Source of the DNA: Deltaproteobacteria bacterium
GTDB taxonomy: Bacteria; JACQOV01
NCBI GenBank assembly: GCA_016202395.1
Contig: JACQOV010000100.1
Span: 1-39,188 of the forward strand
Direction: 5' to 3'
DNA length: 39,188 nt
How positions within the stretch are numbered: position 1 is the first letter of the stretch; each line of letters begins with the position of its first letter. The notes under the pieces were generated by a model. It did no database searches and was not told the DNA's origin. It saw only the letters and a program-made list of their open reading frames with translations. Below, one piece after another: positions 16,111-39,188 of the stretch. A program made the translations under genes and the position numbers.

Positions 16111-16140
16111 TTGACAAGGGGTAATCCGCCATGTTAGGTT
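16111..16140 (+). promoter_or_regulatory. Putative sigma70 promoter of the fur-apbE operon
   Basis: TTGACA (16111-16116), 18-bp spacer, TGt-TAGGTT extended -10 (16135-16140). Confidence 0.6.
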
Positions 16141-16154
16141 GAAATTGAATTTCA
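16140..16154. promoter_or_regulatory. Fur-family operator (perfect 7-1-7 inverted repeat)
   Basis: TGAAATT-G-AATTTCA over the predicted start site, immediately upstream of the fur gene. Confidence 0.7.
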
Positions 16155-16168
16155 CTGTATGGAGCTGT

Positions 16169-16654
16169 ATGGAAAAGGAACTGAAATTTTTTCCGACGTG
16201 GACCGCCGGGCGTAAAGGCTATGCTGAGAGGATTCGGCAAGTCTATAACGAGTATCTCTATTCCAAAGGGCTCAGACCCACCCCGCAGAGGGAATTTATC
16301 CTCAATTATCTCCTGGAGGCTGATCGTCATTTAACTCAGGAAGAGATCTATCAAGCGGTTCGCCACAAGAGAATAGGGAAGGTCACTGTTTTCAGGATGC
16401 TGAAACTTTTAGAAGCCTGTGATCTTGCGGACCAGGTTCATACTTCTACGGGAATCTCTAAATATGAGATCAAAAAGGAGCGTCCTCATCATGATCATCT
16501 GATCTGCATTGAGTGTGGGGATATCCGAGAAGTTCAGTGGCCCGGGGTAGAAAAGATTCAGGAGAAGACTTGCAAGGAGATTGGATTTGTTCCTCTTTGG
16601 CATCGGCACGAGGTTTTTGGTCGTTGCCAAACATGTTCTAATGAGAGGGTCTGA
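16169..16654 (+). CDS. fur: Fur-family transcriptional repressor
   Basis: GLRPTPQR, TVFRMLKLL, HHDHLICIECG, C-terminal CQTC; ATG 16169 after GGAG; Fur versus Zur/PerR subfamily not certain. Confidence 0.88.
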   Translation: MEKELKFFPTWTAGRKGYAERIRQVYNEYLYSKGLRPTPQREFILNYLLEADRHLTQEEIYQAVRHKRIGKVTVFRMLKLLEACDLADQVHTSTGISKYEIKKERPHHDHLICIECGDIREVQWPGVEKIQEKTCKEIGFVPLWHRHEVFGRCQTCSNERV

Positions 16655-16662
16655 GTTTTTTT

Positions 16663-17736
16663 ATGATCTTTATGAAACGTAATTTCAACAGGGGTGTCCA
16701 TTTTCTGCTGAGTGGGATCATTCTTTTGGTGGGCTTGGGCAGGGCCCAAGCTTTGTCTGTGAGCCGCGCTCAATATCTCATGGGAACGATTTGCGAGATC
16801 ACGGTTATAACCGAGCGCATTGGCAAAGCTGAGATGGCGATCTCTAAGGCTTTTCAAGAGATTCTCGATCTGGATAGGATGATGAGTAGTTATCGAAGCG
16901 ATAGTGAGCTTTCTCGGGTCAATGCGCAGGCTGCCACGTCTCCTGTTTCTACCTCTCCAAGGTTATTTGAGGCCCTTTCCTATAGTTCTCATTACGCAAT
17001 ACTCACCCAAAACGCGTTCGATCCCGCGGTCGAACCTTTAATCCAACTTTGGGATTTTCGGGGTGAAGGACGCGTTCCCACAAAGCAAGGGGTTCAAGAG
17101 GCTCTTCAGAAAGTCGGTTTTGAAAAAATAGTTCTTGACGACGATTCCCACACGGTCTTTTTTCGTGAAAATGGAGTTGGAATTGATCTGGGAGGAATCG
17201 GAAAAGGGTATGCTTTAGATCGAGCTGCGCTGTATTTGAAGAAAGAAGGTTTTCCGAATGCGCTCCTTAATTTTGGTGGAGAGATATTGGTTTTAGGCCA
17301 CGGCCCTGAGGGGGAGGATTGGAAAATGGAGGTGGCGGATCCTCAAGATCGAACTCAAGGCGTTGTCTTTTTTTATGCAACGGATGTTGCTATCTCCACT
17401 TCTGGAAATTCGGAGCGGTTTATCGAGGTGGATGGGAAAAGATATGGGCATATTTTGGATCCCCGATCGGGTTATCCTGTGAAATTTAATGGATCTGTTA
17501 CGGTCATCGGTCCCTCCGCCACAGATGCCGACGCATTATCTACGGCCCTTTTTGTGATGGGAGAGAAGGAAGGATTAAAATGGCTTAAAAAGTTTCCTCA
17601 GATTCGGGCGTTCTATTTGGTTCCAGATCGATCCACCGGGGTTCGATTTGCAGGGACTGAGAATTTGTCGAATTTGGGGATTGTGGTCAACTCAGAAAAA
17701 ACAACTCTAACGAAAACAAAGGAGGAGATAAAATGA
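16663..17736 (+). CDS. apbE: FAD:protein FMN transferase (flavin transferase)
   Basis: LMGT, SELSRVN, DLGGIGKGYALD, ISTSGNSE, YGHILDPRSG, DADALSTALFVMG; signal peptide; start could be 16672. Confidence 0.93.
   Translation: MIFMKRNFNRGVHFLLSGIILLVGLGRAQALSVSRAQYLMGTICEITVITERIGKAEMAISKAFQEILDLDRMMSSYRSDSELSRVNAQAATSPVSTSPRLFEALSYSSHYAILTQNAFDPAVEPLIQLWDFRGEGRVPTKQGVQEALQKVGFEKIVLDDDSHTVFFRENGVGIDLGGIGKGYALDRAALYLKKEGFPNALLNFGGEILVLGHGPEGEDWKMEVADPQDRTQGVVFFYATDVAISTSGNSERFIEVDGKRYGHILDPRSGYPVKFNGSVTVIGPSATDADALSTALFVMGEKEGLKWLKKFPQIRAFYLVPDRSTGVRFAGTENLSNLGIVVNSEKTTLTKTKEEIK
16673..16687. promoter_or_regulatory. Possible second Fur-type operator at the apbE start
   Basis: TGAAACGTAATTTCA, 12/15 identical to the 16140 palindrome. 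Confidence 0.4.
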
Positions 17737-19019
17737 AGCGCAGGATTACATTGATCGCTTTTCTGATGTCTTTCGCATTGGCTTGGGCGGAAGAGAAGCA
17801 GGATGGAGAAAAATTAGAGCAGCTGGAACAGAAGGTGGACGTCCTTACTCAGGAGATTGAACGGATCCGCCTGGGTGAGGTCGTCGAGCCGACGTTGGAG
17901 TCGGCCTATGGCTTAGGTCCAGCTGCCTCTAAAGTCTATCATGTGAAAAAAGGGGTGTCTATCGCCGGTTATGGAGAGATGGTTTACAAGAATTTCTCTT
18001 CAGAGCGAGAAGATGGGACCGACTCTGGAGCGACAGACCAGATTGATCTCCTCCGAGCGGTTCTTTACACCGGATACAAATTCACCGATAAGATCCTCTT
18101 GAACTCCGAGATCGAGTTTGAACATGCGGGGGAAGAGGTGAGTGTGGAGTTTGCTTACATCGATTACAATGCTTGGCCTGAGCTCGGGTTTCGGGCCGGT
18201 ATGGTTTTGATTCCGGTGGGACTGATTAACGAACAGCATGAGCCGATTGCGTTTCACGGCGCCAATCGCCCCAATGTGGAGCGGAACATTATTCCGACCA
18301 CTTGGAGAGAGAATGGAGCCGGAGTTTACGGAGAGATAGGTCCCTTTGTCTATCGAACTTATGTCGTTGCCGGGCTGAATGCGGAGAATTTTTCCGCAGG
18401 ATCCGGGCTTCGGAGTGGGCGTCAGAATGGCTCAGAAAGCTCCATCGAGGATGCCGCTTGGACAGCGCGTGTCGATTATGTGGGATTGCCGGGGTTGCTC
18501 GCTGGAGCCTCCACTTTTATTGGAAACTCCGGTCAAGATCCCGATGAAGATTTTGATGCCAAAGTTACCTTGTGGGATCTTCATGCGAAGTATGAATGGC
18601 AAGCTTTAGAGACTCGTGCCCTTTACACTCAAGCGACTATCACAGATGTGGGGGAGATCAATGCAATTCCACGTGAGGACACCGATGACGATGGTGAATT
18701 GGATACAGGCCTGACTGGGAATAAGTCGGTAGGTGAAAAGTTGTATGGCGGCTACCTGGAGACAGCCTACAATGTGTTCAGCCCCCTTGGTTTTAGCCAA
18801 TATTTGGCCCCCTTCTTCCGGTGGGAGCGATACAACACCCAAGAGAACGTCCCTGGCGGTTTTACGGAGAATCCGGCAAACAATCGGACGGAATTCACTT
18901 ACGGCCTGACATATAAGCCGATTGACAATCTGGCGTTGAAATTCGATTATCAGGATATGAATAACAAGGCGGATGCAGGAGTGAATCAGGTGAATCTTGG
19001 GATTGGGTATGTTTTCTAG
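17733..19019 (+). CDS. Outer-membrane beta-barrel (porin-like) protein
   Basis: Signal peptide, short coiled coil, alternating beta strands (NSEIEFEH, VEFAYIDY, LKFDYQ), C-terminal LGIGYVF with terminal Phe. Confidence 0.8.
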   Translation: MKRRITLIAFLMSFALAWAEEKQDGEKLEQLEQKVDVLTQEIERIRLGEVVEPTLESAYGLGPAASKVYHVKKGVSIAGYGEMVYKNFSSEREDGTDSGATDQIDLLRAVLYTGYKFTDKILLNSEIEFEHAGEEVSVEFAYIDYNAWPELGFRAGMVLIPVGLINEQHEPIAFHGANRPNVERNIIPTTWRENGAGVYGEIGPFVYRTYVVAGLNAENFSAGSGLRSGRQNGSESSIEDAAWTARVDYVGLPGLLAGASTFIGNSGQDPDEDFDAKVTLWDLHAKYEWQALETRALYTQATITDVGEINAIPREDTDDDGELDTGLTGNKSVGEKLYGGYLETAYNVFSPLGFSQYLAPFFRWERYNTQENVPGGFTENPANNRTEFTYGLTYKPIDNLALKFDYQDMNNKADAGVNQVNLGIGYVF

Positions 19020-19704
19020 ATTGAGCCTAAACATCTTGACCCAGCGGGTCCTGTCATGGGGCTTCCCCCAGGCGTGCTCCACGGTCCGCCAGCCCGCAGC
19101 AGCTACGCTGCAAGCGTTGCTGGCGGGCGCGCCTGGGGGGCCCCCGCCCCATGCCACCCGCTGGGTCGAGTGGTTCTTTGTATTTATTTTTTCAGTCGTT
19201 TTTGTATCAGATGTGGAGGCGAGGGTTTATTTGACGCAGGAGAAGGCTCTCGAACTTGCCTTTGGAAAAGAAGGAGGCATTGAACGGAAAACGCTTTTTT
19301 TAACGGAGGAGCAAGCAAGCGCTATCGAACAGGCGGCGAAAAGCAGATTAGGGACGCGTGTCGTCACCTACTATGTGGGGATTCAAGAGAAAAAACCGAT
19401 CGGTTATGCCTTCTTTATGACCGACACCGTTCGGACCATGCCAGCCACAATCATGGTGGTGGTCAATCCCGATGCGACAGTTCGATTTGTGGAGATTCTC
19501 GCCTTTTATGAGCCGGAGGATTACAAACCGCATCTCCGTTGGTTAAAGTTGTGGGGGGATAAAAAACTTGAGGAAGATCTTGCGATTCGACGAGACATCC
19601 CCAACCTCTCTGGGGCCACGCTTACCGCCCGGACTATTCAAGACGCGGTCCGGCGTTCTTTAGCGATTTTCCAGATTGCTATCCTGAAGGAGAATAGATC
19701 GTGA
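19009..19704 (+). CDS. Extracytosolic FMN-binding (flavinylation target) protein; signal region interrupted by an in-frame palindrome
   Basis: [S/T]GAT flavinylation motif NLSGATLT; EILAFYEPEDY; adjacent apbE; ATG 19009 overlaps the porin stop. Confidence 0.8.
   Translation: MFSRLSLNILTQRVLSWGFPQACSTVRQPAAATLQALLAGAPGGPPPHATRWVEWFFVFIFSVVFVSDVEARVYLTQEKALELAFGKEGGIERKTLFLTEEQASAIEQAAKSRLGTRVVTYYVGIQEKKPIGYAFFMTDTVRTMPATIMVVVNPDATVRFVEILAFYEPEDYKPHLRWLKLWGDKKLEEDLAIRRDIPNLSGATLTARTIQDAVRRSLAIFQIAILKENRS
19035..19170. repeat. GC-rich long hairpin element inside the 5' end of the FMN-binding protein gene
   Basis: CTTGACCCAGCGGGT / ACCCGCTGGGTCGAG termini (one G-T pair); nested CATGGGG/CCCCATG, CCCCCAGGCG/CGCCTGGGGG, CCGCCAGC/GCTGGCGG, GCAGC-tac-GCTGC. 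Confidence 0.85.
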
Positions 19705-20189
19705 AGTACATGCAGAATGGTAAATTTCAGAATCACCCTCTCATGCGATTGACGCTTCTCTTCACGCTTCTCTTCTTAACGGGGCTTTGGTTGACTCACC
19801 TCTTTCTTTATTTTTCTAAGATGGGTCTCGCTCCTCAATCGGTGGTTGATTACTATCTCGGATTGGAAGCCGAGTATCGCGTCCCCCGAAGCTTCGATTC
19901 CATGTTAGAAGTGACGCACATGCATCTCCCCATGATGGCCGTTGTGATTTTGTTACTCACCCATCTTTTAATCTTCGCCCCTTTTTCATCCCAATTTAAG
20001 ATCTTTTTTATCTCGGTCTCTTTTCTCTCGGCGTTTTTCAATGAAATGTCGGGATGGCTCGTCCGTTTCGTGAGCCCTTATTTTGCCATTCTCAAGGTCG
20101 TCTCTTTCCTTACCTTTCAGGTGTCGCTGGCTTTTCTGATTTTTGCTATGGTTTGGTTTTTAACACGGAGGCCTAACAATGGGGACTAA
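19701..20189 (+). CDS. Small ~4-TM inner-membrane protein with membrane-proximal histidines
   Basis: GTG start after AAGGAG; hydrophobic segments; WLTHLF, EVTHMHLPMM, LLTHLL. Confidence 0.7.
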   Translation: MKYMQNGKFQNHPLMRLTLLFTLLFLTGLWLTHLFLYFSKMGLAPQSVVDYYLGLEAEYRVPRSFDSMLEVTHMHLPMMAVVILLLTHLLIFAPFSSQFKIFFISVSFLSAFFNEMSGWLVRFVSPYFAILKVVSFLTFQVSLAFLIFAMVWFLTRRPNNGD

Positions 20190-22434
20190 GGCTTTTTTGA
20201 GTTTAATCTCTCTTCTCATCCTCTCTTGGGCGTCGGCCGCTGATGATGTGCAGGAGCGCGTTCAAAGGACTGCGTTTATCTTGAACGTCACGATTCAGGA
20301 ATATAAAGAAGGAGTAGAGGCCGGAGAGATTGTTAATTCCATAGAATACGAAGAAGCGCTCAGTTTCTTCAACGAAGCCGGAAAGCAGTTTGAAAGTTTA
20401 AAAAATACCGTCTCGTTAGATCCCGCGGTTCAGTCCGATCTCGATCAACGTTTGCAACTCCTCTCCCAATGGATTCAAGAGCGGGCCGACGAAGGGATGT
20501 TGGCTTCATTTTCAGCTCAGTGGGGGGAAGATCTCGCAAAAGCTTTTAAAGTGGGTCTCAATCTTCTACCGAAAGGAAAACCCTCCATAAGTTCTGGAGC
20601 CAAGCTTTATCAGGAAAAGTGTTCTCTCTGTCATGGCTCCATGGGGGGAGGAGATGGCCCCGCTGCGGCAGGTTTGGAGCCGAAGCCGGCCCACTTTAAT
20701 GATCCCGAGCGGATGGGGAATCGCTCGCCTCAAGATCTTTTTCAGATTATTACTGTCGGAATTAAAGGGACATCGATGGTGGCTTGGGAGAATCAACTCA
20801 GTGAGGTCGAGCGATGGGATCTTGCCTCCATTTTGCACCTCTTTTTGGGTTCTCCCGATATATTGGCAAGAGGGGAGAAGGTTCACCCATCATTGAAGGA
20901 TCAACTCCCTTCTTCTTTTCAAGATTGGCAACAACTTTTGCAATGGAGCGACGATGAGTTTGTTATTCAATTCAATGAGCAGATACCAAATCATTCTTAC
21001 ACGACCGAGGATCTTCGCGCGCTCGCTTTGTATCTCCGCTCTCAGACCCTCTCCGGAGAGGGATTTCTAAAAGAATCTTCAGGAGTGGATGGAGTGGAAT
21101 CAACCCTCACTACAGTTCGTCAAACGTTGGGAGCGGCCCTCGATCGGTATCGCCAGCGGGATATCGACGAGGCCAAATCCTTAGCCTTGGATGCTTATCT
21201 CCATTTCGAAGCGGTCGAATCAAAACTCCGCGTGAAAGATCCAGAGTTGGCAAGCGAGCTCGAAATGAAATTTTCGGAGATCCAAATAGGGATATCCGAT
21301 CGACGGCCCTGGGATGAAATCGATGAAAAGGGGGATGAGATCTTCCATGGGTTGAATGCCACCCAACAGATTTTAAGCGAGAAAAGCTCTCCTTCTATCC
21401 TTTTCGTTCAGTCCCTCTCCATTATTGTTCGCGAGGGATTTGAGGCGATGTTAATTATCGCCGCTTTGATCGCATTCCTCCTTCGATTACAACACAAGGA
21501 TAAACTCCGTTTTGTTTATTGGGGAACCGGCATTGGAGTTCTGGCTTCCTTCTTAACGGCATGGTTATTACAAGGACTTTTTACGATCTCTCCGGCGAAT
21601 CAAGAGGTTTTAGAAGGGATGACGATGCTGGTTGCTGTTGCAGTCCTCTTCTATGTTTCCCACTGGATCTTGGCAAAAGCGGAGGTCGAAAAATGGCAGG
21701 AATTTATCCAGAAGCGGACTCAAAGCGCTTTAAAGACAGGGAGTGGAATCGCTTTGGGCTTTGTTGCTTTTTTAGCGGTGTATCGCGAGGGATTTGAAAC
21801 CGTCCTTTTCTACAATGCCCTTTTTGGCTTTGCTGAGAATGGAACATTCCCCGTGGTCTCTGGTTTTGGGGTAGGGCTTCTAGTCCTCCTGGCCCTCTTT
21901 CTTCTTTTTTATCGCTTTCAGGTGAAGATCCCTCTGCGCGAATTTTTCCTCGTTACCAGTTTCATCCTTTACTTCTTAGCTTTTGTTTTCATGGGGCGTG
22001 GACTCCATGAACTTCAAGAGGCCGGTTGGCTGGCAGCACGAGGAATTCCTGGGGTCCCTGCAATTCCATTCTTGGGACTCTATCCCACCTTTGAAACGGT
22101 TTTGGGCCAATCGCTTTTGTTGTTCGCTTTGTTACTGGGGGTCCTCTATGTTTTTGTGATTCAACCCGGGGGCGAAAGGAAAAAACTTTTACAACAGACG
22201 CGCCATATCGAAAAGGATATGATGACACTCCATGCGATGCAAGAAGAGATCTCGCGTCGAGTCGAACAATATCAGAAGATAGCGGCAGTTCCCCCTGACA
22301 TTCTAAAAGAGCTTCAAGACCTCGACACCAAAATCCATGAGCTGATGGATCATGCAAGCCATCTCGAGTCCGAACTCCTCGATTATTTTGAAGAGCTTGG
22401 CGCCAAAACCTGGGGCGCCATCCATAGAAAATAA
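20179..22434 (+). CDS. Cytochrome c / FTR1-family iron permease fusion
   Basis: CSLCH heme motif followed by GTSM; two RExxE motifs (VREGFE, YREGFE); GLHELQEAG; multiple TMs. Confidence 0.9.
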   Translation: MGTKAFLSLISLLILSWASAADDVQERVQRTAFILNVTIQEYKEGVEAGEIVNSIEYEEALSFFNEAGKQFESLKNTVSLDPAVQSDLDQRLQLLSQWIQERADEGMLASFSAQWGEDLAKAFKVGLNLLPKGKPSISSGAKLYQEKCSLCHGSMGGGDGPAAAGLEPKPAHFNDPERMGNRSPQDLFQIITVGIKGTSMVAWENQLSEVERWDLASILHLFLGSPDILARGEKVHPSLKDQLPSSFQDWQQLLQWSDDEFVIQFNEQIPNHSYTTEDLRALALYLRSQTLSGEGFLKESSGVDGVESTLTTVRQTLGAALDRYRQRDIDEAKSLALDAYLHFEAVESKLRVKDPELASELEMKFSEIQIGISDRRPWDEIDEKGDEIFHGLNATQQILSEKSSPSILFVQSLSIIVREGFEAMLIIAALIAFLLRLQHKDKLRFVYWGTGIGVLASFLTAWLLQGLFTISPANQEVLEGMTMLVAVAVLFYVSHWILAKAEVEKWQEFIQKRTQSALKTGSGIALGFVAFLAVYREGFETVLFYNALFGFAENGTFPVVSGFGVGLLVLLALFLLFYRFQVKIPLREFFLVTSFILYFLAFVFMGRGLHELQEAGWLAARGIPGVPAIPFLGLYPTFETVLGQSLLLFALLLGVLYVFVIQPGGERKKLLQQTRHIEKDMMTLHAMQEEISRRVEQYQKIAAVPPDILKELQDLDTKIHELMDHASHLESELLDYFEELGAKTWGAIHRK

Positions 22435-28083: not shown

Positions 28084-28989
28084 TTACATCCTCCATCGGT
28101 CATGAACCCAAAACCACATCTCCGGATATTTTCGAATCGTGGCGTCGAGTGCCTCGTTGCATTTCTGGGTCAGAGCGTACACATCCTTCTCTCGATCTCC
28201 GGTGGGGGTGTATTGGATGGGGGCCTCGTAAATGGCTCGCCACCGCGTATTCCCAAGGGGTTGTGGATAGAAGTGCATGATAGAAGATCCCGTATCCAGA
28301 GCTAATTCTGCGAGATGCCGATTGGTCAGAGCCGGCTGGCCCAGAAAAGGGACTATAATCCCTCCTCGCAGGGGCTGGCTTCTCTGATCGAGAAGAATCG
28401 CGATCATTTCGTTGTGGAGTAAAATCTCCTTCAATCGTGGAAGAGCCCCTTTTGCGTAAACCACTCCGACGCTTCCCGAACATCGGAGTCCATCGATCAA
28501 TCGATCCAATAGAGGATTCTTGAGAGAACGAGCCACATAATGGATTGGAAGCCCTTGATACCCCGCGCCGACTGCGAGGAGCTCCGCGTTTCCGATATGT
28601 CCTAGCAAAATAATCACACCGCCTTTTTTTCGAGCCTCGCTGATCCGACGCCATGATTCGGGATCTCGTTCAATAAATCGTTCATAGTTTTGAGCGTTGA
28701 TGTGACGGGCCCAAAGGATCTCAAAAAGAGAGTTGGAAAAGTTTTGAAAAGAGGCTTTGGCGATGGCCCGTTTCTCTTTCTCGGTTTTGGTAGCTCCGTA
28801 AACGTGGTCGAGATTTTTTAAGGCGAGCTTCCTGCGCGAGAAAATCAGCCAATAGCAAAGCGTTCCGATCCCTTTGGCAAGGGCCGACCACACGGAGCGG
28901 GGAAGAAGATGGATGAAACGATGCAAGAGATAGATGGGGAGATAAACCGCCCAATGGCGCCAACGAATGGTTTCTGTTTTGGAATTCAT
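28084..28989 (-). CDS. LpxL/HtrB-family (lipid A/lysophospholipid) acyltransferase
   Basis: HIGNAE (HxxxxE), LLDQ, VPFLGQPA, PEMWFWVHDRW. Confidence 0.85.
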   Translation of the reverse strand: MNSKTETIRWRHWAVYLPIYLLHRFIHLLPRSVWSALAKGIGTLCYWLIFSRRKLALKNLDHVYGATKTEKEKRAIAKASFQNFSNSLFEILWARHINAQNYERFIERDPESWRRISEARKKGGVIILLGHIGNAELLAVGAGYQGLPIHYVARSLKNPLLDRLIDGLRCSGSVGVVYAKGALPRLKEILLHNEMIAILLDQRSQPLRGGIIVPFLGQPALTNRHLAELALDTGSSIMHFYPQPLGNTRWRAIYEAPIQYTPTGDREKDVYALTQKCNEALDATIRKYPEMWFWVHDRWRM

Positions 28990-29272: not shown

Positions 29273-29288
29273 TGCAATTGTCATGCCA
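29273..29288 (-). promoter_or_regulatory. Sigma54 (-24/-12) promoter
   Basis: Minus strand TGGCAT-GACAA-TTGCA, GG-N10-GC spacing. Confidence 0.7.
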
Positions 29289-32668: not shown

Positions 32669-32910
32669 AAGGAAGGCTTCATCTGTGGAGTTTTGTTTAC
32701 AGTGGGTCGGTAAAAAAGATCAACACCTATTTCTTTTTAGAAAACAGGAAGTTAGCGTTTTATGGAGGGGTAAAGCGTAAAAAAAGTTTGCACTTTTTTT
32801 CGGGTGGATTTTTTTTGATTCCGTCTTTGTAAGAGGGAAGGATGGTCTATCTTTTTGAAAATAGAGTGTTTTTAGCTCAGTGTTTTGAATTATTTAAAAA
32901 GAAGCTTTTC

Positions 32911-32926
32911 TGGCACTGTTTTTGCA
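32911..32926 (+). promoter_or_regulatory. Sigma54 (-24/-12) promoter of the TatT-DctP operon
   Basis: TGGCAC-TGTTT-TTGCA consensus in a ~300-bp AT-rich intergenic region; AAGGAGG precedes ATG 32977. Confidence 0.75.
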
Positions 32927-32976
32927 TGTCCTAAGATGCCGAAGGGCATTATTTACCTATAAAGGAGGGTACAACA

Positions 32977-33843
32977 ATGAAGTGGGTCGTATTAACAGTA
33001 TCGCTAAGTGGCTTGCTGCTGTTTAACGCCAGTTGTTCTATCAAAGCGGCAGCAGTTAATGCGCTGGTCCCCAGCATGTACGACATGATAGAGACCTCTT
33101 ATCAAGGAAAAGATTCTGCAACCGTTGGAGAGGCCCTTCCCACCTTTATTGTTCTGATGGAGGGGATGGTGGGGATGTCTCCAAAAAATCAGGAGTTGCT
33201 GGCTTTGGCAGGACAGCTCAACGCCTTCTATGCGATGGGATTTATGGAACAACAGGATCCCAAGAGGGCGATACGGCTTTATGAAAGGGGTGTGGAACTG
33301 GGGATGGAGGCGTTGAAGCGAAACAAAAAATTCCGCAACTCTTTGGCAAGAGGGGATAAGTTTCGTGAAGCGACTCCGTACTTAAAGAAAGACGATCTGC
33401 TCCCCGCGTTTTGGACCCTCATGGCATGGGCCCTTCTTTTACAACTCAAGTTGGACGATCCCAAAGCCCTTTTCGATCTTCCTAAAGTTACCGCACTTCT
33501 GAATCGGGTTATGGAATTGGATGACACCTATTTCTTCGGAGCGCCTCATCTTTTGCAAGGGGCTCTCTACACGATTCTGCCCGCGATGGCAGGAGGGGGA
33601 CCGGATAAGGCCCAGGCAGAGTTTGGCAAGCTTTTTGCGATCTCGGGAGATCGGTTCATGCTGGGGCATGTCTACTATGCTCAGAACTACGCCACTCTTA
33701 TCAAAGATAAGGCCCTTTTCGAGAGTGAGCTCCAGCTCGTTTTGGACACCCCCTCGGAGGTGCTCACAGAAATGCCGATTGCGAACGAGATGGCCAAGGA
33801 TCTGGCTCGAAAGCTTTTAGCGAAAAAGGATGAGCTTTTTTAG
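32977..33843 (+). CDS. TRAP transporter T-component (TatT) lipoprotein
   Basis: Lipoprotein-type signal ending LFNASC; helical repeats; ELDDTYFFGAPH, PAMAGGGPDKA, ANEMAKDLARKLL; followed by DctP genes. Confidence 0.85.
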   Translation: MKWVVLTVSLSGLLLFNASCSIKAAAVNALVPSMYDMIETSYQGKDSATVGEALPTFIVLMEGMVGMSPKNQELLALAGQLNAFYAMGFMEQQDPKRAIRLYERGVELGMEALKRNKKFRNSLARGDKFREATPYLKKDDLLPAFWTLMAWALLLQLKLDDPKALFDLPKVTALLNRVMELDDTYFFGAPHLLQGALYTILPAMAGGGPDKAQAEFGKLFAISGDRFMLGHVYYAQNYATLIKDKALFESELQLVLDTPSEVLTEMPIANEMAKDLARKLLAKKDELF

Positions 33844-34891
33844 TTTACATAAGAAGTGGGGGAGGTCGTTGGGGTTGGCTCTTGTTGTCAGCGCTTCTGT
33901 GTCGTCAGCGCAGACATCCGCGCCGAAGTATATCCTTAAACTGGGGGCGGTGACCCCTCCGGGGACCTCCCAGGCTCGAGTAGAGCAGAGAATAGCCGAT
34001 CGGATTGATGAAGCAACCCAAGGGGAGGTGAAGGCGGTTTGGTATTTCGGGGCGATTTTGGGGGATGATATTGAGATGGTTCGAAAGGCGAGGTTGGGGC
34101 AACTCGATGGAGGGGGTTGGGTGGAATCGGGATTGTCTGAGATCGCTAGGGAGGTGATGTTGTTGGGAACCCCCTTTTTCTTTAACTTTACACTGAATGA
34201 TTATTCGGAGGCGCTTTGCACCCTGGATGGATCTCTTCCCTCGTATCAGAGGCTTTTTGAACGGAAGGGATTTGTTCTGGTGGATTGGTTTCCATTGGGG
34301 GGGCTCTTTTTCATGTCCAAACAACCGTTTCAGAGCCTTAAAGACGTTGAGAATTTAAAATTTTGGAGTTGGAGCGGTTACCCCATGTTTCAACCGATTT
34401 TCGATGCGCTGGGGGTGAAAAATCAGGTGAGTTTATCGCTCACCGAGGTTTTACCCGCTTTGCAAACGGGGATGATCGATGCCACCGTGGCCATACCGTT
34501 TGGTTTTGTGAGTCTCCAATGGTACACCGAGCAGAGGTATATCTTGGACTTTCCCATTTCGTTCCTGAATGCGGCCGTGGTGTTGAAAAAATCTTCCCTT
34601 GAAAAGATTCCGCCTCCCTTGCAAGAGAAAGTGCTTCAAGCCATCCGTGAGACAAGGAAAGAATGGCTTGAAGTGGATATGGAAGGAAACGGGAAGATAT
34701 TCCAAGCCCTGTTGGACTATGGGATCCAACCGATCCGAAACCCCGAGCTAATGGAGCAGGTTAAAAAGAGGACGGAGGGGGTTGCGAAGGGCATGACAGG
34801 AAAATATTGGTCTCAGGAATTTTACGACCAGATGGTGGGCCTTCGTGATCAATGTCGCGCGTTACGATCGGGTCCAGAAGCGGTGGAGTAA
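33830..34891 (+). CDS. dctP: TRAP substrate-binding protein DctP/TatP, paralogue 1
   Basis: LKLGAVTPPGT, LGDDIEMVRKARLGQLDG, EVLPALQTGMIDA, LQWYT. Confidence 0.85.
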   Translation: MSFFSLHKKWGRSLGLALVVSASVSSAQTSAPKYILKLGAVTPPGTSQARVEQRIADRIDEATQGEVKAVWYFGAILGDDIEMVRKARLGQLDGGGWVESGLSEIAREVMLLGTPFFFNFTLNDYSEALCTLDGSLPSYQRLFERKGFVLVDWFPLGGLFFMSKQPFQSLKDVENLKFWSWSGYPMFQPIFDALGVKNQVSLSLTEVLPALQTGMIDATVAIPFGFVSLQWYTEQRYILDFPISFLNAAVVLKKSSLEKIPPPLQEKVLQAIRETRKEWLEVDMEGNGKIFQALLDYGIQPIRNPELMEQVKKRTEGVAKGMTGKYWSQEFYDQMVGLRDQCRALRSGPEAVE

Positions 34892-34918
34892 ACAGGATTC
34901 GTCGGGAGGAGGTTCCTG

Positions 34919-35935
34919 TTGAGAATCGGTGTGGTTGGGGCAACGTTTTTATTTTTTGCGATTGCTTCGCAGGCCGTTGCGGATCCAGCCTATGTCATCA
35001 AATTGGGGACCTCTACCCCCGTGGGTACCGAGCAAGCTCGGATCGAGGAAGAGATGGCCCGGGCGATTTATGAAAAGACCTCTGGAAAGGTGAAAGTGGT
35101 GTGGTATATGGGGGCCGTTTTAGGGGACGATGTAGATCAAATACGAAAGACCCATCTGGGGCAGATCGATGGTGGAGGATGGTTAGGGATGGGTTTAACG
35201 CAGATTGTAAAAGAGATAGCTTTATTGGAAAGCCCTTTCTTTTTTAATTTGACACTGGATGATTTCTCTGAGGTGGATTGCACCTTGAAAGGGACGCTCC
35301 CTCTTTATCAAAAGCTTTTTCAGGACAAAGGATTTGTATTGGTCGACTGGTACCAACATGGCCCCGGTTTTTTCCTTTTCAAAAGGCCGGTCGAGAGGCT
35401 GGAAGATTTGCAACAATTTCGAGTTTGGCTGTGGCCGGGGTACCCGGTATTCGAGCAATTCATAAGAGCCGTTGGAATCGGCAATCCGGTTGGAATTCCT
35501 CTTCCTGAGGTTTTAACCTCTCTACAGACGGGGGTCATTGAGACTTCGGCGGGCGCCCCTTTTGCTTTGGTAGCCCTGCAATGGTACACCGAGGCGAATT
35601 ACATTTTTGATACCCCTTTGTTGTTTGTGACGGCGGCTTTAGTAATCAAGAAATCGAAACTCGATGCGATGCCGGAACCGGTGCGGCAACAGGTTTTTGA
35701 TTATCTTCATTCAAGCGCCCCGTCCATGGTGGCCTCTATGAGGAGGGCCGACAAAGTATCCTACGAACAATTGATCCAACACGGCTTGAGGCGTTTCTCG
35801 GATCCTAAGATTCTGGAGGAGGTGAAGAGAAAAAGCCAAAAAGTTTATGAGAACATGATCGGAAAAGATTATTCCCGAGAATTTTACGAGCAAGTGGTCT
35901 CGATCCGAGACCAGTGCCGCGCCACCGTTCATTAA
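34919..35935 (+). CDS. dctP: TRAP substrate-binding protein DctP/TatP, paralogue 2
   Basis: TTG start after GGAGGAGG; LGDDVDQIRKTHLGQIDG, EVLTSLQTGVIE, LQWYT. Confidence 0.85.
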   Translation: MRIGVVGATFLFFAIASQAVADPAYVIKLGTSTPVGTEQARIEEEMARAIYEKTSGKVKVVWYMGAVLGDDVDQIRKTHLGQIDGGGWLGMGLTQIVKEIALLESPFFFNLTLDDFSEVDCTLKGTLPLYQKLFQDKGFVLVDWYQHGPGFFLFKRPVERLEDLQQFRVWLWPGYPVFEQFIRAVGIGNPVGIPLPEVLTSLQTGVIETSAGAPFALVALQWYTEANYIFDTPLLFVTAALVIKKSKLDAMPEPVRQQVFDYLHSSAPSMVASMRRADKVSYEQLIQHGLRRFSDPKILEEVKRKSQKVYENMIGKDYSREFYEQVVSIRDQCRATVH

Positions 35936-35939
35936 AGAT

Positions 35940-37073
35940 ATGAAGATACTTCGAGAAATTTTTGGGCGAGGAATGTTTAGGCGAGGAATTTTTAGGAGAG
36001 AGGTGTTGACCTTAGGGATGGTCTTTGTTTTCCTCGGATCGGCCTTTGCGTTTGCGGAAGAGGGGAGGACTCTTTTAAAGATGGGGATGATTTTGCCTCA
36101 GGGGACCCCTGCGGCCAATCTCATCCTGGAGTTGAAACAGGAGATCTTAAAGAAAACCCAAGGAAAGATTAAGACAGAGTGGTACATGGGGGCGGTGCTT
36201 GGCGATGAAACCGACATGAGACGAAAAGCGATCTTAGATCAGATTCAGGGAGGGGCTTGGACGGTGGGAGGTCTTTCTCCCATTGTTTCGGAGACTCAGT
36301 TGCTCGAAGGCCCGTTCTTTTTTAATTTTACGTTGAGCGATTATCGTGAAGTCGATTGCACTCTTCAGAAATCTTATCCCATCTGGCAAAAGATGTTTAA
36401 AGAGAAGGGGTTTGTTCTGGTGGACTGGTACCAACAAGGCCCCATTTATTTTATTCATAAATCTCCCGCCAATACGATGGAGGATGCCGAGAAATTTAAG
36501 GCTTGGTCTTATCCGGGATATCCGATGTCGGAAGAGATTATGAAAGCGTGGGGAGTCCAAAATCGCATCTCGCTCGGATTGCCTGAGGTTCTTACAGGGT
36601 TACAAACAGGCATCATTGAAACGGCTTATGCCTCTCCCGCCTCTTTGGTTGGATTACAATGGTACACCGAGGTCAATTATATCTTAGGCATTCCGGTGAC
36701 CTTTAGCCCCGTTGGAGTATTGGTGACCCAGAAGGCTTTTGACCGCTTATCCCCTTCCGATCAAAAGATCTTTCTAGAGACCTTTCGATCTAAAACTTCG
36801 CAGGTCACGCAGTCGCTTCGGGAAGCAGATCGATTGGCTTATAAGGGTTTGGTCGAAGGGGAGGGGGCGCCATTAAAGGTATCGGGCAATCCGGAGATCT
36901 TCGCGGAATTGAAAAAAAGGGCGGGAAAGGTTTATGAAAACCTGACAGGAAAGGTTTGGTCTCAGAATTTCTATCAACAAATCGTGTCTATTCGGAATCA
37001 ATGTCGTGCATCGTTAAATGAACCCCTCACCCTTAAACCCTCTCCCCGCTCCGCGGGGAGAGGGAAGGGGTGA
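35940..37073 (+). CDS. dctP: TRAP substrate-binding protein DctP/TatP, paralogue 3
   Basis: LGDETDMRRKAILDQIQG, EVLTGLQTGIIE, LQWYT; C-terminus runs through a REP-like hairpin; start may be downstream. Confidence 0.83.
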   Translation: MKILREIFGRGMFRRGIFRREVLTLGMVFVFLGSAFAFAEEGRTLLKMGMILPQGTPAANLILELKQEILKKTQGKIKTEWYMGAVLGDETDMRRKAILDQIQGGAWTVGGLSPIVSETQLLEGPFFFNFTLSDYREVDCTLQKSYPIWQKMFKEKGFVLVDWYQQGPIYFIHKSPANTMEDAEKFKAWSYPGYPMSEEIMKAWGVQNRISLGLPEVLTGLQTGIIETAYASPASLVGLQWYTEVNYILGIPVTFSPVGVLVTQKAFDRLSPSDQKIFLETFRSKTSQVTQSLREADRLAYKGLVEGEGAPLKVSGNPEIFAELKKRAGKVYENLTGKVWSQNFYQQIVSIRNQCRASLNEPLTLKPSPRSAGRGKG

Positions 37074-37077
37074 GGGG
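37023..37077. repeat. REP-like palindrome (CCCCTCACCC...CCCTCTCCCC...GGGGAGAGGG type)
   Basis: CCCCTCACCC/GGGTGAGGGG outer stem; CCCTCTCCCCGC-tcc-GCGGGGAGAGGG inner stem. Confidence 0.8.
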
Positions 37078-37099
37078 CGCTGTGGAAGGAGGTTGGATT

Positions 37100-38161
37100 A
37101 TGAAAAGGTGGATGTTGGCTGTTTCGGTTTTTTTCTTTCTCTTTAGCCAGGGAAAGACATTTGCGGGGCCTTGTGAATTTAGGGCTGGGGTTTTGTTCCC
37201 TGAAGGAACCTCCTGGATGAAAAATATCCACAAGATGGAGGAGGAGATTAAGCAAAAAACGAATGGGGAGTGTTCTTTCGTGATCTATACGGGGGGAAGT
37301 CAGGGGGATGAGCCGACCATGCTTCAGAAAATGCGGTTGGGGCAGCTCAACGTGATGATGAGCTCCGGCATGGGGTTGAACAAAATCGACACGGCCATAG
37401 AGGTTCTTGAAAATCCAGGGCTCTATGATATCAGCGCGGGGCTGCCCCGGGCCTATCAAGAGGTCGATTATCTTCATCAAAAGATGCTGCCGGTTTTTCA
37501 GGAGCGGTTTCGCAAGAAAGCGTACGAGCTGGTCGCTCTGGCGAGCCAGGGGTTTATGTACGTTTACACCACCAAATCGGTTAAAACATTCGACGATATG
37601 AAGAAGCTAAAGTTCGAACTCTGGAGCGGGTTGCTGATGAATCAAAAATTGTGCGAAGGATTTAAACTGAATTGCATTCCTGTCAATTTTCCAGAGATAT
37701 TAACCAACTTGCAGACCGGTTTGCTGGACGCGGTTTATCTCAATCCCATGACGCTCGTAGCTCTACAGTGGCACACCGAAGTGAAGTATGTTATCGATAT
37801 GCCGTTGGTTCATGGCATTGGGGGATTCATTGTTACCAAGAGCACGTGGGACAAAGTTCCGCCAGCCCACCAAAAGGTGATTGCCGAGGCGATGCAGAGA
37901 TACCTTCCTGACATTCATGCGGCCAACCGCCGGGATGATCAGGTGGTTGCGGACTCCTTGTTGAAGCAAGGGATTGAAAATATTGCCCCGCCAAAGGAGA
38001 TGAGGGAAAGTTTTCTGACTGATTCCAGGGCGATGCAACAGAAGATGGTGGGAGATCTTTATCCCCAAGAGATTTTGGATCAAGCTCTCGCTCACTTGAA
38101 GGAATTTCGAACGAAGAACCCTCTTCCAGACCAGAGAGGGGCTGGAAATGCGAAGAATTAG
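37100..38161 (+). CDS. dctP: TRAP substrate-binding protein DctP/TatP, paralogue 4
   Basis: ATG 37100 after AAGGAGG; PEGTSW, GGSQGDEPTMLQKMRLGQL, EILTNLQTGLLD, LQWHT. Confidence 0.87.
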   Translation: MKRWMLAVSVFFFLFSQGKTFAGPCEFRAGVLFPEGTSWMKNIHKMEEEIKQKTNGECSFVIYTGGSQGDEPTMLQKMRLGQLNVMMSSGMGLNKIDTAIEVLENPGLYDISAGLPRAYQEVDYLHQKMLPVFQERFRKKAYELVALASQGFMYVYTTKSVKTFDDMKKLKFELWSGLLMNQKLCEGFKLNCIPVNFPEILTNLQTGLLDAVYLNPMTLVALQWHTEVKYVIDMPLVHGIGGFIVTKSTWDKVPPAHQKVIAEAMQRYLPDIHAANRRDDQVVADSLLKQGIENIAPPKEMRESFLTDSRAMQQKMVGDLYPQEILDQALAHLKEFRTKNPLPDQRGAGNAKN

Positions 38162-39149
38162 CAGGTGGCTAGCGATCCTTTGTCTTCCGGTTGTCTCCTT
38201 TGCCGAGCCGGTTCATATCAAATCTGGAGTGCTATTTCCGGAAGGTTCCACCTGGATGAATGCGATCCATCGGGTTGAGAAGGAGATTTATCAAAAAACG
38301 GGAGGAGGGGTCACGTTCACGACCTACGGCGGCGGCGTTCAGGGCGATGAACCGGCGATGCTAAAAAAAATCCATCTAGATCAACTCAACGCAGGCATGT
38401 TTACCAGCGTGGCTCTCTCTAAGATTGATCCTGCCGTCATCGCTTTTGAGCTTCCTCTCCTCTATCAAGAAGGGGATTATCAAGAAGTGGATTATCTCTA
38501 TGAAAAGATGTTCCCCGTTTTTCATCAACGGTTTGCGGAGAGGGGCTATGAGCTTATTCTGTTAGCTGGCCAAGGGTTCATCTATCTCTATACGACAAAG
38601 CCGGTCAAAACCTTTGAGGACTTCCAAAGGCTTAAAATGGAGTTGTGGGGCGGTCATGCCTTTAATAAGGATCTGATCGATGCGTTTGGGTTGACTGGGG
38701 TGCCGGTGGCTTTTCCCGAAATTTTAACCAGTTTGCAGACCGGACTTCTAGAGGTTGTTTTTGCTCCCCCCTTGGCGATGGTCTCTTTGCAGTGGAATAC
38801 GGAAGTGAAATATGCTATGGATATGCCTGTGATTCATGGGGTGGCCGGAATTGTTGTGAACAAGAAAACGTGGGATCGGATTCCAAAGGTCGATCAAGAG
38901 GTCTTTCGGAAGGCTTTTCAGAGGAGTATTCCCCCGCTCCAGGAAACGGCTCGGCGGGATGATAAGGTTGTGTGGGAGGCTCTTCCGGGGCAGGGGATCC
39001 AGATCCTTTCCATCGATGAATCGGTCAGAACTCAATTTGAGGAGAAATCTAAAAAGATGTGGAAAGATTTGGTGGGGAAGTACTATCCACAGTCGATTTT
39101 AGATCAAATGCTCGGCTATTTGAAAGAGTACCGAGCCAAGGTTCAGTAA
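38148..39149 (+). CDS. dctP: TRAP substrate-binding protein DctP/TatP, paralogue 5
   Basis: PEGSTW, GGVQGDEPAMLKKIHLDQL, EILTSLQTGLLE, LQWNT. Confidence 0.87.
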   Translation: MRRISRWLAILCLPVVSFAEPVHIKSGVLFPEGSTWMNAIHRVEKEIYQKTGGGVTFTTYGGGVQGDEPAMLKKIHLDQLNAGMFTSVALSKIDPAVIAFELPLLYQEGDYQEVDYLYEKMFPVFHQRFAERGYELILLAGQGFIYLYTTKPVKTFEDFQRLKMELWGGHAFNKDLIDAFGLTGVPVAFPEILTSLQTGLLEVVFAPPLAMVSLQWNTEVKYAMDMPVIHGVAGIVVNKKTWDRIPKVDQEVFRKAFQRSIPPLQETARRDDKVVWEALPGQGIQILSIDESVRTQFEEKSKKMWKDLVGKYYPQSILDQMLGYLKEYRAKVQ

Positions 39150-39188
39150 ATCAAGGCTCAACAAATGATTATAAAAATAATCAACAAA

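Follow-up and report, generated by a model that had tools for sequence, protein, structure and literature searches.

The closest known relatives of the locus treated here are the TPAT systems (tetratricopeptide repeat (TPR)-protein-associated TRAP transporters, TRAP standing for tripartite ATP-independent periplasmic). For the system of Treponema pallidum, a route has been proposed in which a lipid passes from the T protein to the P protein and from there to the permease (accessible part of PMC5812351), a passage that so far remains a proposal. According to the available sections of PMC11713862, TatT proteins are over-represented among bacteria whose lipid synthesis is deficient, and two of them bind long-chain fatty acids, for which Es_TatT and the treponemal Tp0956 show a preference, whereas BstC, also of the TatT family, binds sterols and occurs as monomer or dimer (PMC10942540, in the part available). 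In the literature searched, as far as its texts were accessible, ligands are reported for TatT proteins and none for the P component of TPAT systems. In this regard, we have analysed a stretch of 39,188 nucleotides (the window) from a deltaproteobacterium (assembly GCA_016202395.1), which is the entire contig JACQOV010000100.1 (C77) of a 1.9-Mb genome, 89% complete, and in which one TatT gene is followed by five intact TatP-type DctP genes (P1 to P5), the last of them ending 39 bp before the contig does. We favour, with some reserve, the reading that this is a sigma54-driven TPAT operon importing fatty acids or related lipids, with its P component multiplied into a bank of specialised receptors.

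The first gene of the array, read as TatT from its letters, is one both by profile (PF16811, Table 1) and by fold. Its model (pLDDT 95.8) matched Es_TatT (8G52) with a Z score of 31.4, Tp0956 (4DI3_A) with 29.4, and 7T1S, titled as a bacterial sterol transporter and taken by us to be BstC, with 20.0, while generic TPR proteins reached 18.7 at most, below the three lipid-protein matches. The Cys20 residue follows a hydrophobic stretch and recurs in all eight full-length rows of a ten-row alignment, which suggests that T is a lipoprotein, with an atypical residue at position -3. The nearest relative of T is 69% identical, and the closest T in a named genome (G042) 45%.

Profile scans likewise upheld the sequence-only reading of five consecutive, tightly spaced DctP genes behind TatT, with PF03480 values from 1.5e-23 to 4.7e-33, all above the Pfam cut-off, and NF037995 matches also above theirs. 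The spacings are -14 bp (T-P1), 27 (P1-P2), 4 (P2-P3), 26 (P3-P4) and -14 (P4-P5), and the frames contain no internal stops; P4 is given the ATG at 37100, preceded by a GGAGG site, with a GTG at 37070 as the longer alternative. The array was also recovered in contigs of four public runs, all of one study, labelled groundwater metagenome and possibly representing the source sample, where a run contig of 3,294 bases covers P3-P4-P5 with zero differences. Membership of all five receptors in the TPAT kind, which had been claimed as well, is borne out by their scores: 242-325 bits on a TatP-type profile (built from 35 single T-adjacent Ps) versus 91-125 on a classical one (built from 20 non-TPAT DctPs), in a setting where 12 of 12 leave-one-out sequences were sorted correctly. 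The model of P1 (pLDDT 87.2) has the DctP fold, and its fold search placed the treponemal Tp0957 at rank 24, not above other DctPs, so the fold carries no subtype signal. Classical DctPs bind carboxylates through an Arg (PMC11574862, accessible part), which was found at the corresponding column in 1 of 140 rows, that of a P on contig C106 of the same genome, and is absent from P1-P5 in either register; here the segments read KFWSW, RVWLW, KAWSY, KFELW and KMELW, with a register uncertain by one residue. Inspection of the Cys positions by eye revealed no lipobox Cys in P1-P5, so these proteins would be soluble, and the lipoprotein status of P may be specific to Treponema.

How unusual such an array is was assessed with 64 other TatT loci, 43 taken from genomes and 21 from a metagenome scan that was seeded with P and is partly redundant; contig ends truncate some of these loci. 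One P was found in 53 of these loci, none in 8, two in 2 and four in a single case (L052), and the longest uninterrupted run of Ps was two; a further locus, L055, in which a truncated T follows three Ps, scored below the T cut-off and was excluded from the count. Five tandem Ps are the extreme among the loci examined. The four-P locus (L052:6587-14614) carries its own permease: in its operon, acyl-CoA dehydrogenase genes precede the order P, Usp, P, P, T, P, Q, M. The idea that multi-P arrays are not routine stood, then, for the five-gene run, but not for many TatPs per permease, a situation that recurs in other genomes: 7 matches in G001, 7 in G024, 8 in G042, 11 in G056, 14 in G081, 14 in G318 and 22 in G096, some of these counts being lower bounds or including fragments. 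Full-length DctMs number 1, 1, 2, 2, 4-5 and 2 in G001, G024, G042, G056, G081 and G096, respectively. The expanded genes lie singly or in pairs, with few permeases, and the three genomes examined of the class of G096 are all expanded. At least seven Ps occur in 4 of the 21 genomes with a strong TatT in a 121-genome phylum sample (whose centre, G042, was chosen rather than drawn), and a single P in 43 of the 44 positive genomes of another sample of 151. The literature searched, mostly without subscription journals, yielded no description of multi-TatP loci, of 7-22-copy TatP expansions in several deep lineages, or of tandem DctPs with auxotrophy. Altogether, the array belongs to the TPAT kind by its T and P, and is an extreme instance of an expansion that recurs and has apparently not been described before.

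The five receptors fall into two old subgroups, each supported at 100%: P1-P3, which share a Cys pair and 41-45% identity, and P4-P5; identity between the subgroups is 27-32%. The best tree separates both subgroups, and a single origin of the five Ps was not rejected (p-AU 0.098). Protein searches revealed two further P1/P2/P3 sets and two orthologues of P4 (first and second identities in Table 1), whereas no orthologue of its own was found for P5; P0024/P0094/P0089 were assigned to a common contig, as were P0008/P0092/P0090, solely on account of equal lengths of their longest contigs (3,447 and 3,653). Within the three P1/P2/P3 orthologue groups, 27 columns are fixed within and different between groups, and the identities of the P1-P4 orthologues (66-95%) are comparable with that of the nearest relative of T. 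Just two clusters at the 50% level stood well above the rest in a representative search, so both subgroups look lineage-restricted.

Ahead of TatT, the predicted sigma54 promoter was confirmed as an exact consensus match ending 50 bp before the start codon, in a genome that contains rpoN and 13 strong NtrC-like matches. Strict sites of this kind amount to 50 in the genome against 2.5 expected, with five on contig C57 alone, and on these counts the site is genuine but ordinary for this genome. The sigma54 regulon as such is very dense for 1.9 Mb; a second sigma54-like site lies at 29288 (minus strand), upstream of the LpxL-like acyltransferase gene (28084-28989). A perfect palindrome upstream of the -24 element is a possible activator site, and scans for sigma70 promoters and terminators gave chance-level results. 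Within the array, a REP-like repeat at the end of P3 marks the border between the subgroups and lengthens P3, the 95% orthologue of which has no such C-terminal tail; this repeat could alter the levels of downstream mRNA. On C106, it also occurs within an open reading frame and is translated there.

As had been noted from the sequence, there is no DctQ or DctM in the window by profile search, and the frame starting MIIKIINK at 39165 runs off its edge. That frame ranks in the top 1.8% of 1,048 open reading frame starts of the genome on a profile of the DctQ N-terminus, a weak match over 7 residues, and the contig end did not overlap any other contig of the genome. The whole assembly holds 8 DctPs, 2 TatTs, 1 DctQ and 1 DctM, and the sole assembled QM pair sits in a T-P-Q-M locus of another subtype (C106:15647-19550), whose P has retained the Arg and is of the classical type by score (171 versus 240 bits) and whose DctM is 42-46% identical to TPAT-type DctMs (the nine best matches of L033 reach 59-83%). 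Solitary P genes on C58 and C72 are TatP-type as well, and because the QM of C106 is of a different subtype, seven TatP-type receptors are left without an assembled cognate permease. Use of the C106 permease by the array was downgraded as a candidate, since T, P and M of that locus all belong to the other subtype. Q or M is present in 45 of 56 other T-P loci. The array permease is probably encoded just past the contig end; recourse to the C106 permease, or a permease elsewhere or none at all, are each considerably less likely, and to a similar degree.

A role in lipid uptake gains support from the rest of the genome. Neither phmmer, tblastn (with E. coli queries) nor Pfam found fabF, fabB, fabZ or plsX in the assembly; canonical accA and accD were absent by E. 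coli queries and Pfam, no full-length FabK-like match appeared, and ketoacyl-synthase domains were limited to a cross-match with thiolase. The gaps fall inside three intact gene clusters in mid-contig positions: the gene that comes 17 bp after acpP is one recognised as glyA, with no fabF between; lpxD overlaps lpxA, with no fabZ between; and at the plsX site a gene recognised as rpmF precedes fabD. The coordinates noted for this apparent loss of elongation genes, in a genome that keeps fabH, are C95:42378-45933, C76:45879-47695 and C55:2461-3456, a FabH being encoded on C55. The genome retains fabH, fabD, fabG, acpP, lpxA/D/B and PlsB, and it encodes six FadD-like (acyl-CoA ligase-like) and six acyl-CoA dehydrogenase-like proteins, FadIJ/FadA-like proteins and two weak FadL-like matches. 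Judged from this gene content, the host is a probable fatty-acid auxotroph. Joint absence of fabF and FabZ is rare, as it was seen in just 3 of the 121 sampled genomes (G041, G042 and G079), two of which harbour the pair of TatT loci that, in the genome scan, come nearest to the T of the array; G042 is a single-contig genome with no fabF or fabZ match and with 8 P, 2 M and 3 T. Whether genomes with expanded TatPs tend to have lost fatty-acid synthesis was also tested across genomes, and such a link is not supported, and the literature searched contained nothing on fabF/fabZ loss in groundwater genomes. The lipid role put forward in the sequence-only reading is thus supported by the apparent loss of fatty-acid synthesis, but not by the neighbouring genes it had invoked. 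The SRPBCC and cutA genes precede the sigma54 site, and an epimerase, a PF01553 acyltransferase, the LpxL-like acyltransferase and a short-chain dehydrogenase/reductase (SDR) on the opposite strand, so the array operon excludes them and they are weak evidence.

In the mechanism that we propose, a lipid would cross the outer membrane through the FadL-like channels, and membrane-anchored T would hold it in its pore and hand it over to whichever soluble P fits, which would in turn deliver it to one TPAT-type DctQM. The solitary TatPs of C58 and C72 probably share the T and the permease of the array. Inside the cell, acyl-CoA ligases would feed PlsB and beta-oxidation and, with FabZ gone, a FabH-FabD-FabG-ACP shunt could convert medium-chain acyl-CoA into 3-hydroxyacyl-ACP for LpxA and LpxD, a FabH step for which PA3286 of Pseudomonas aeruginosa offers a precedent (PMC4549310, accessible part). 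Mixed T3:P3 complexes of the five Ps on one T are possible and hypothetical, and a 3:3 stoichiometry is not to be assumed, because the related BstC is a monomer or dimer (PMC10942540, as available). Taken together, these elements would describe a supply line for lipids that is indispensable to a bacterium with two membranes which makes lipid A but is unable to elongate fatty acids. In it, a single TatT scaffold would work with five to seven receptors split by chain length or head group, the Glu-bearing P4 and P5 would take neutral or amine-headed lipids, mixed complexes might form and the leftover shunt would supply lipid A synthesis. We offer this extended picture tentatively, as a possible but doubtful one.

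Several observations weigh against our interpretation. The lipid role is deduced from fold and genome content, and the TatT family includes the sterol binder BstC (PMC10942540, part available). The cognate QM is not assembled, and in the DNA fetched for the 56 T-P loci both Q and M are missing from 11, some of them being cut by contig ends. FabF is kept in the expansion genomes G096, G056, G081, G024 and G001; relocated fab genes could be missing here, since the assembly is 89% complete; and enzymes of the FabH family or of MaoC type might replace FabF and FabZ, a FabH-type enzyme elongating short acyl-ACPs having been described (PMC4549310, in its accessible sections). Part of this evidence would suit an array that imports lipids purely for carbon and energy in a cell whose acyl chains are made by unassembled genes or through a non-canonical pathway, in which a FabH-type enzyme or a thiolase elongates the chain and a MaoC enzyme acts as dehydratase. 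The beta-oxidation set looks complete, AMP-binding matches number 12-18 in each of the four expansion genomes in which they were counted, and fabH, fabD, fabG and acpP persist in this incomplete genome, yet the loss of fabF, fabZ and plsX from three intact clusters, the lack of canonical accA/accD and of any ketoacyl-synthase domain besides the thiolase cross-match, and the rarity of the joint absence make us regard purely catabolic uptake as rather unlikely.

Two other explanations concern the receptors themselves. In a genome so rich in sigma54 activators, lipid-loaded Ps might dock on membrane kinases or other sensors and act as signalling receptors, an idea consistent with the unassembled QM, the strong NtrC-like matches and the roughly 10 regulatory genes among 104 neighbours of multi-copy or orphan Ps (our own count). 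About 22 of the same 104, counted by us without a control, are lipid or acyl-CoA enzymes; moreover, the operon contains no sensor gene, its next frame is weakly DctQ-like, and Q and M accompany all three other multi-P T loci, which leaves a signalling role improbable. Recent neutral duplication, or decaying copies with one P in use, could be read into the repeat inserted at the end of P3 and into the absence of a P5 orthologue. The paralogues are just 27-50% identical, however, with every frame intact, and the two additional P1/P2/P3 sets and their group-specific fixed columns show orthologues keeping the identity of each paralogue, which argues against such copies and makes this explanation highly improbable. 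The refuting case of neutral evolution raised by the sequence-only reading is in this way countered for P1-P4, retained in relatives, and less so for P5.

The features of the array are collected in Table 1. Elsewhere in the window, one run of genes (16139-22434) comprises Fur, ApbE, two unassigned open reading frames, an FMN-binding protein and a fusion of cytochrome c with FTR1, and resembles a module for iron uptake or for extracytoplasmic flavinylation. Outside it, a gyrB-like frame of 1,248 aa (C72:13888-17634) contains a long central insertion that by eye resembles an endonuclease-bearing intein.

Table 1. Coordinates of the TatT-TatP array and of its associated elements in the window.
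Feature	Position	Strand	Evidence or remark
Perfect A/T-rich palindrome, putative activator site	32779..32800	.	About 110-130 bp upstream of -24 element; core once more in genome
sigma54 -24/-12 consensus, TGGCAC-N5-TTGCA	32911..32926	+	Sole exact match in window, 0.02 expected
TatT (T component), 288 aa, probable lipoprotein (Cys20)	32977..33843	+	PF16811 1.7e-56
P1, TatP-type DctP, subgroup A, Cys130/Cys342 pair	33830..34891	+	PF03480; orthologues 66%, 72%
P2, TatP-type DctP, subgroup A	34919..35935	+	PF03480; orthologues 85%, 77%
P3, TatP-type DctP, subgroup A; start uncertain; C-terminal tail from inserted repeat	35940..37073	+	PF03480; orthologues 95%, 83%
REP-like palindromic repeat, genome-wide	37024..37077	.	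67 strand matches in genome; hairpin -52 kcal/mol
P4, TatP-type DctP, subgroup B, Glu near usual Arg site	37100..38161	+	PF03480; orthologues 93%, 67%
P5, TatP-type DctP, subgroup B	38148..39149	+	PF03480; 50% to P4
Frame cut by contig end, first 8 codons (MIIKIINK), possibly dctQ	39165..39188	+	DctQ N-terminus profile, weak, 7 residues

Five soluble, diverged receptors behind one T constitute a ready panel for asking whether specificity is set by P and whether a single T can work with several different Ps. To judge by its genome context, the host appears to be a small groundwater bacterium making its lipopolysaccharide envelope out of scavenged lipids. If the extended picture of an indispensable lipid supply line is right, a secondary transporter would broaden its lipid range by receptor multiplication, and the array would offer a first panel for learning the ligands of TatPs.

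Comparison with known systems places the locus close to the TPAT of T. pallidum (Tp0956, Tp0957 and TatQM), with which it shares the T-then-P order, a TatP-like receptor without the DctP Arg segment and a T that is probably a lipoprotein. The T fold is alike (rmsd 2.2 Å over 250 residues to Tp0956), but the single P gene is replaced here by five in the operon and by seven of TatP type genome-wide, and the permease was not seen. Moreover, the two treponemal proteins are both lipoproteins (PMC5812351, accessible part), whereas inspection by eye gave no lipobox for the Ps described here. The best structural match of T is the palmitate-bound Es_TatT of Enhygromyxa salina (rmsd 2.1 Å over 259 residues), a likeness that suggests long-chain fatty acids as the ligand; T is only 27% identical to it, and by sequence the second TatT of the genome, on C106, is much closer (1e-43 versus 6e-20). 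BstC (7T1S) of the BstABC sterol system belongs to the same superfamily and has a lipid ligand, although its fold match is more distant and it is partnered by a protein of RND type and by a PhnD-like binding protein instead of a DctP. With the classical DctPQM and SiaPQM TRAP transporters the array has the DctP fold in common (Z 34), but its Ps are without the Arg selectivity filter, score much lower on the classical profile and are accompanied by a T. The orphan Bug/TctC expansions of the TTT family in Bordetella likewise combine many binding proteins with few membrane components (PMC5812351, in the part available), although they involve a different protein family, hydrophilic carboxylate ligands and no T component.

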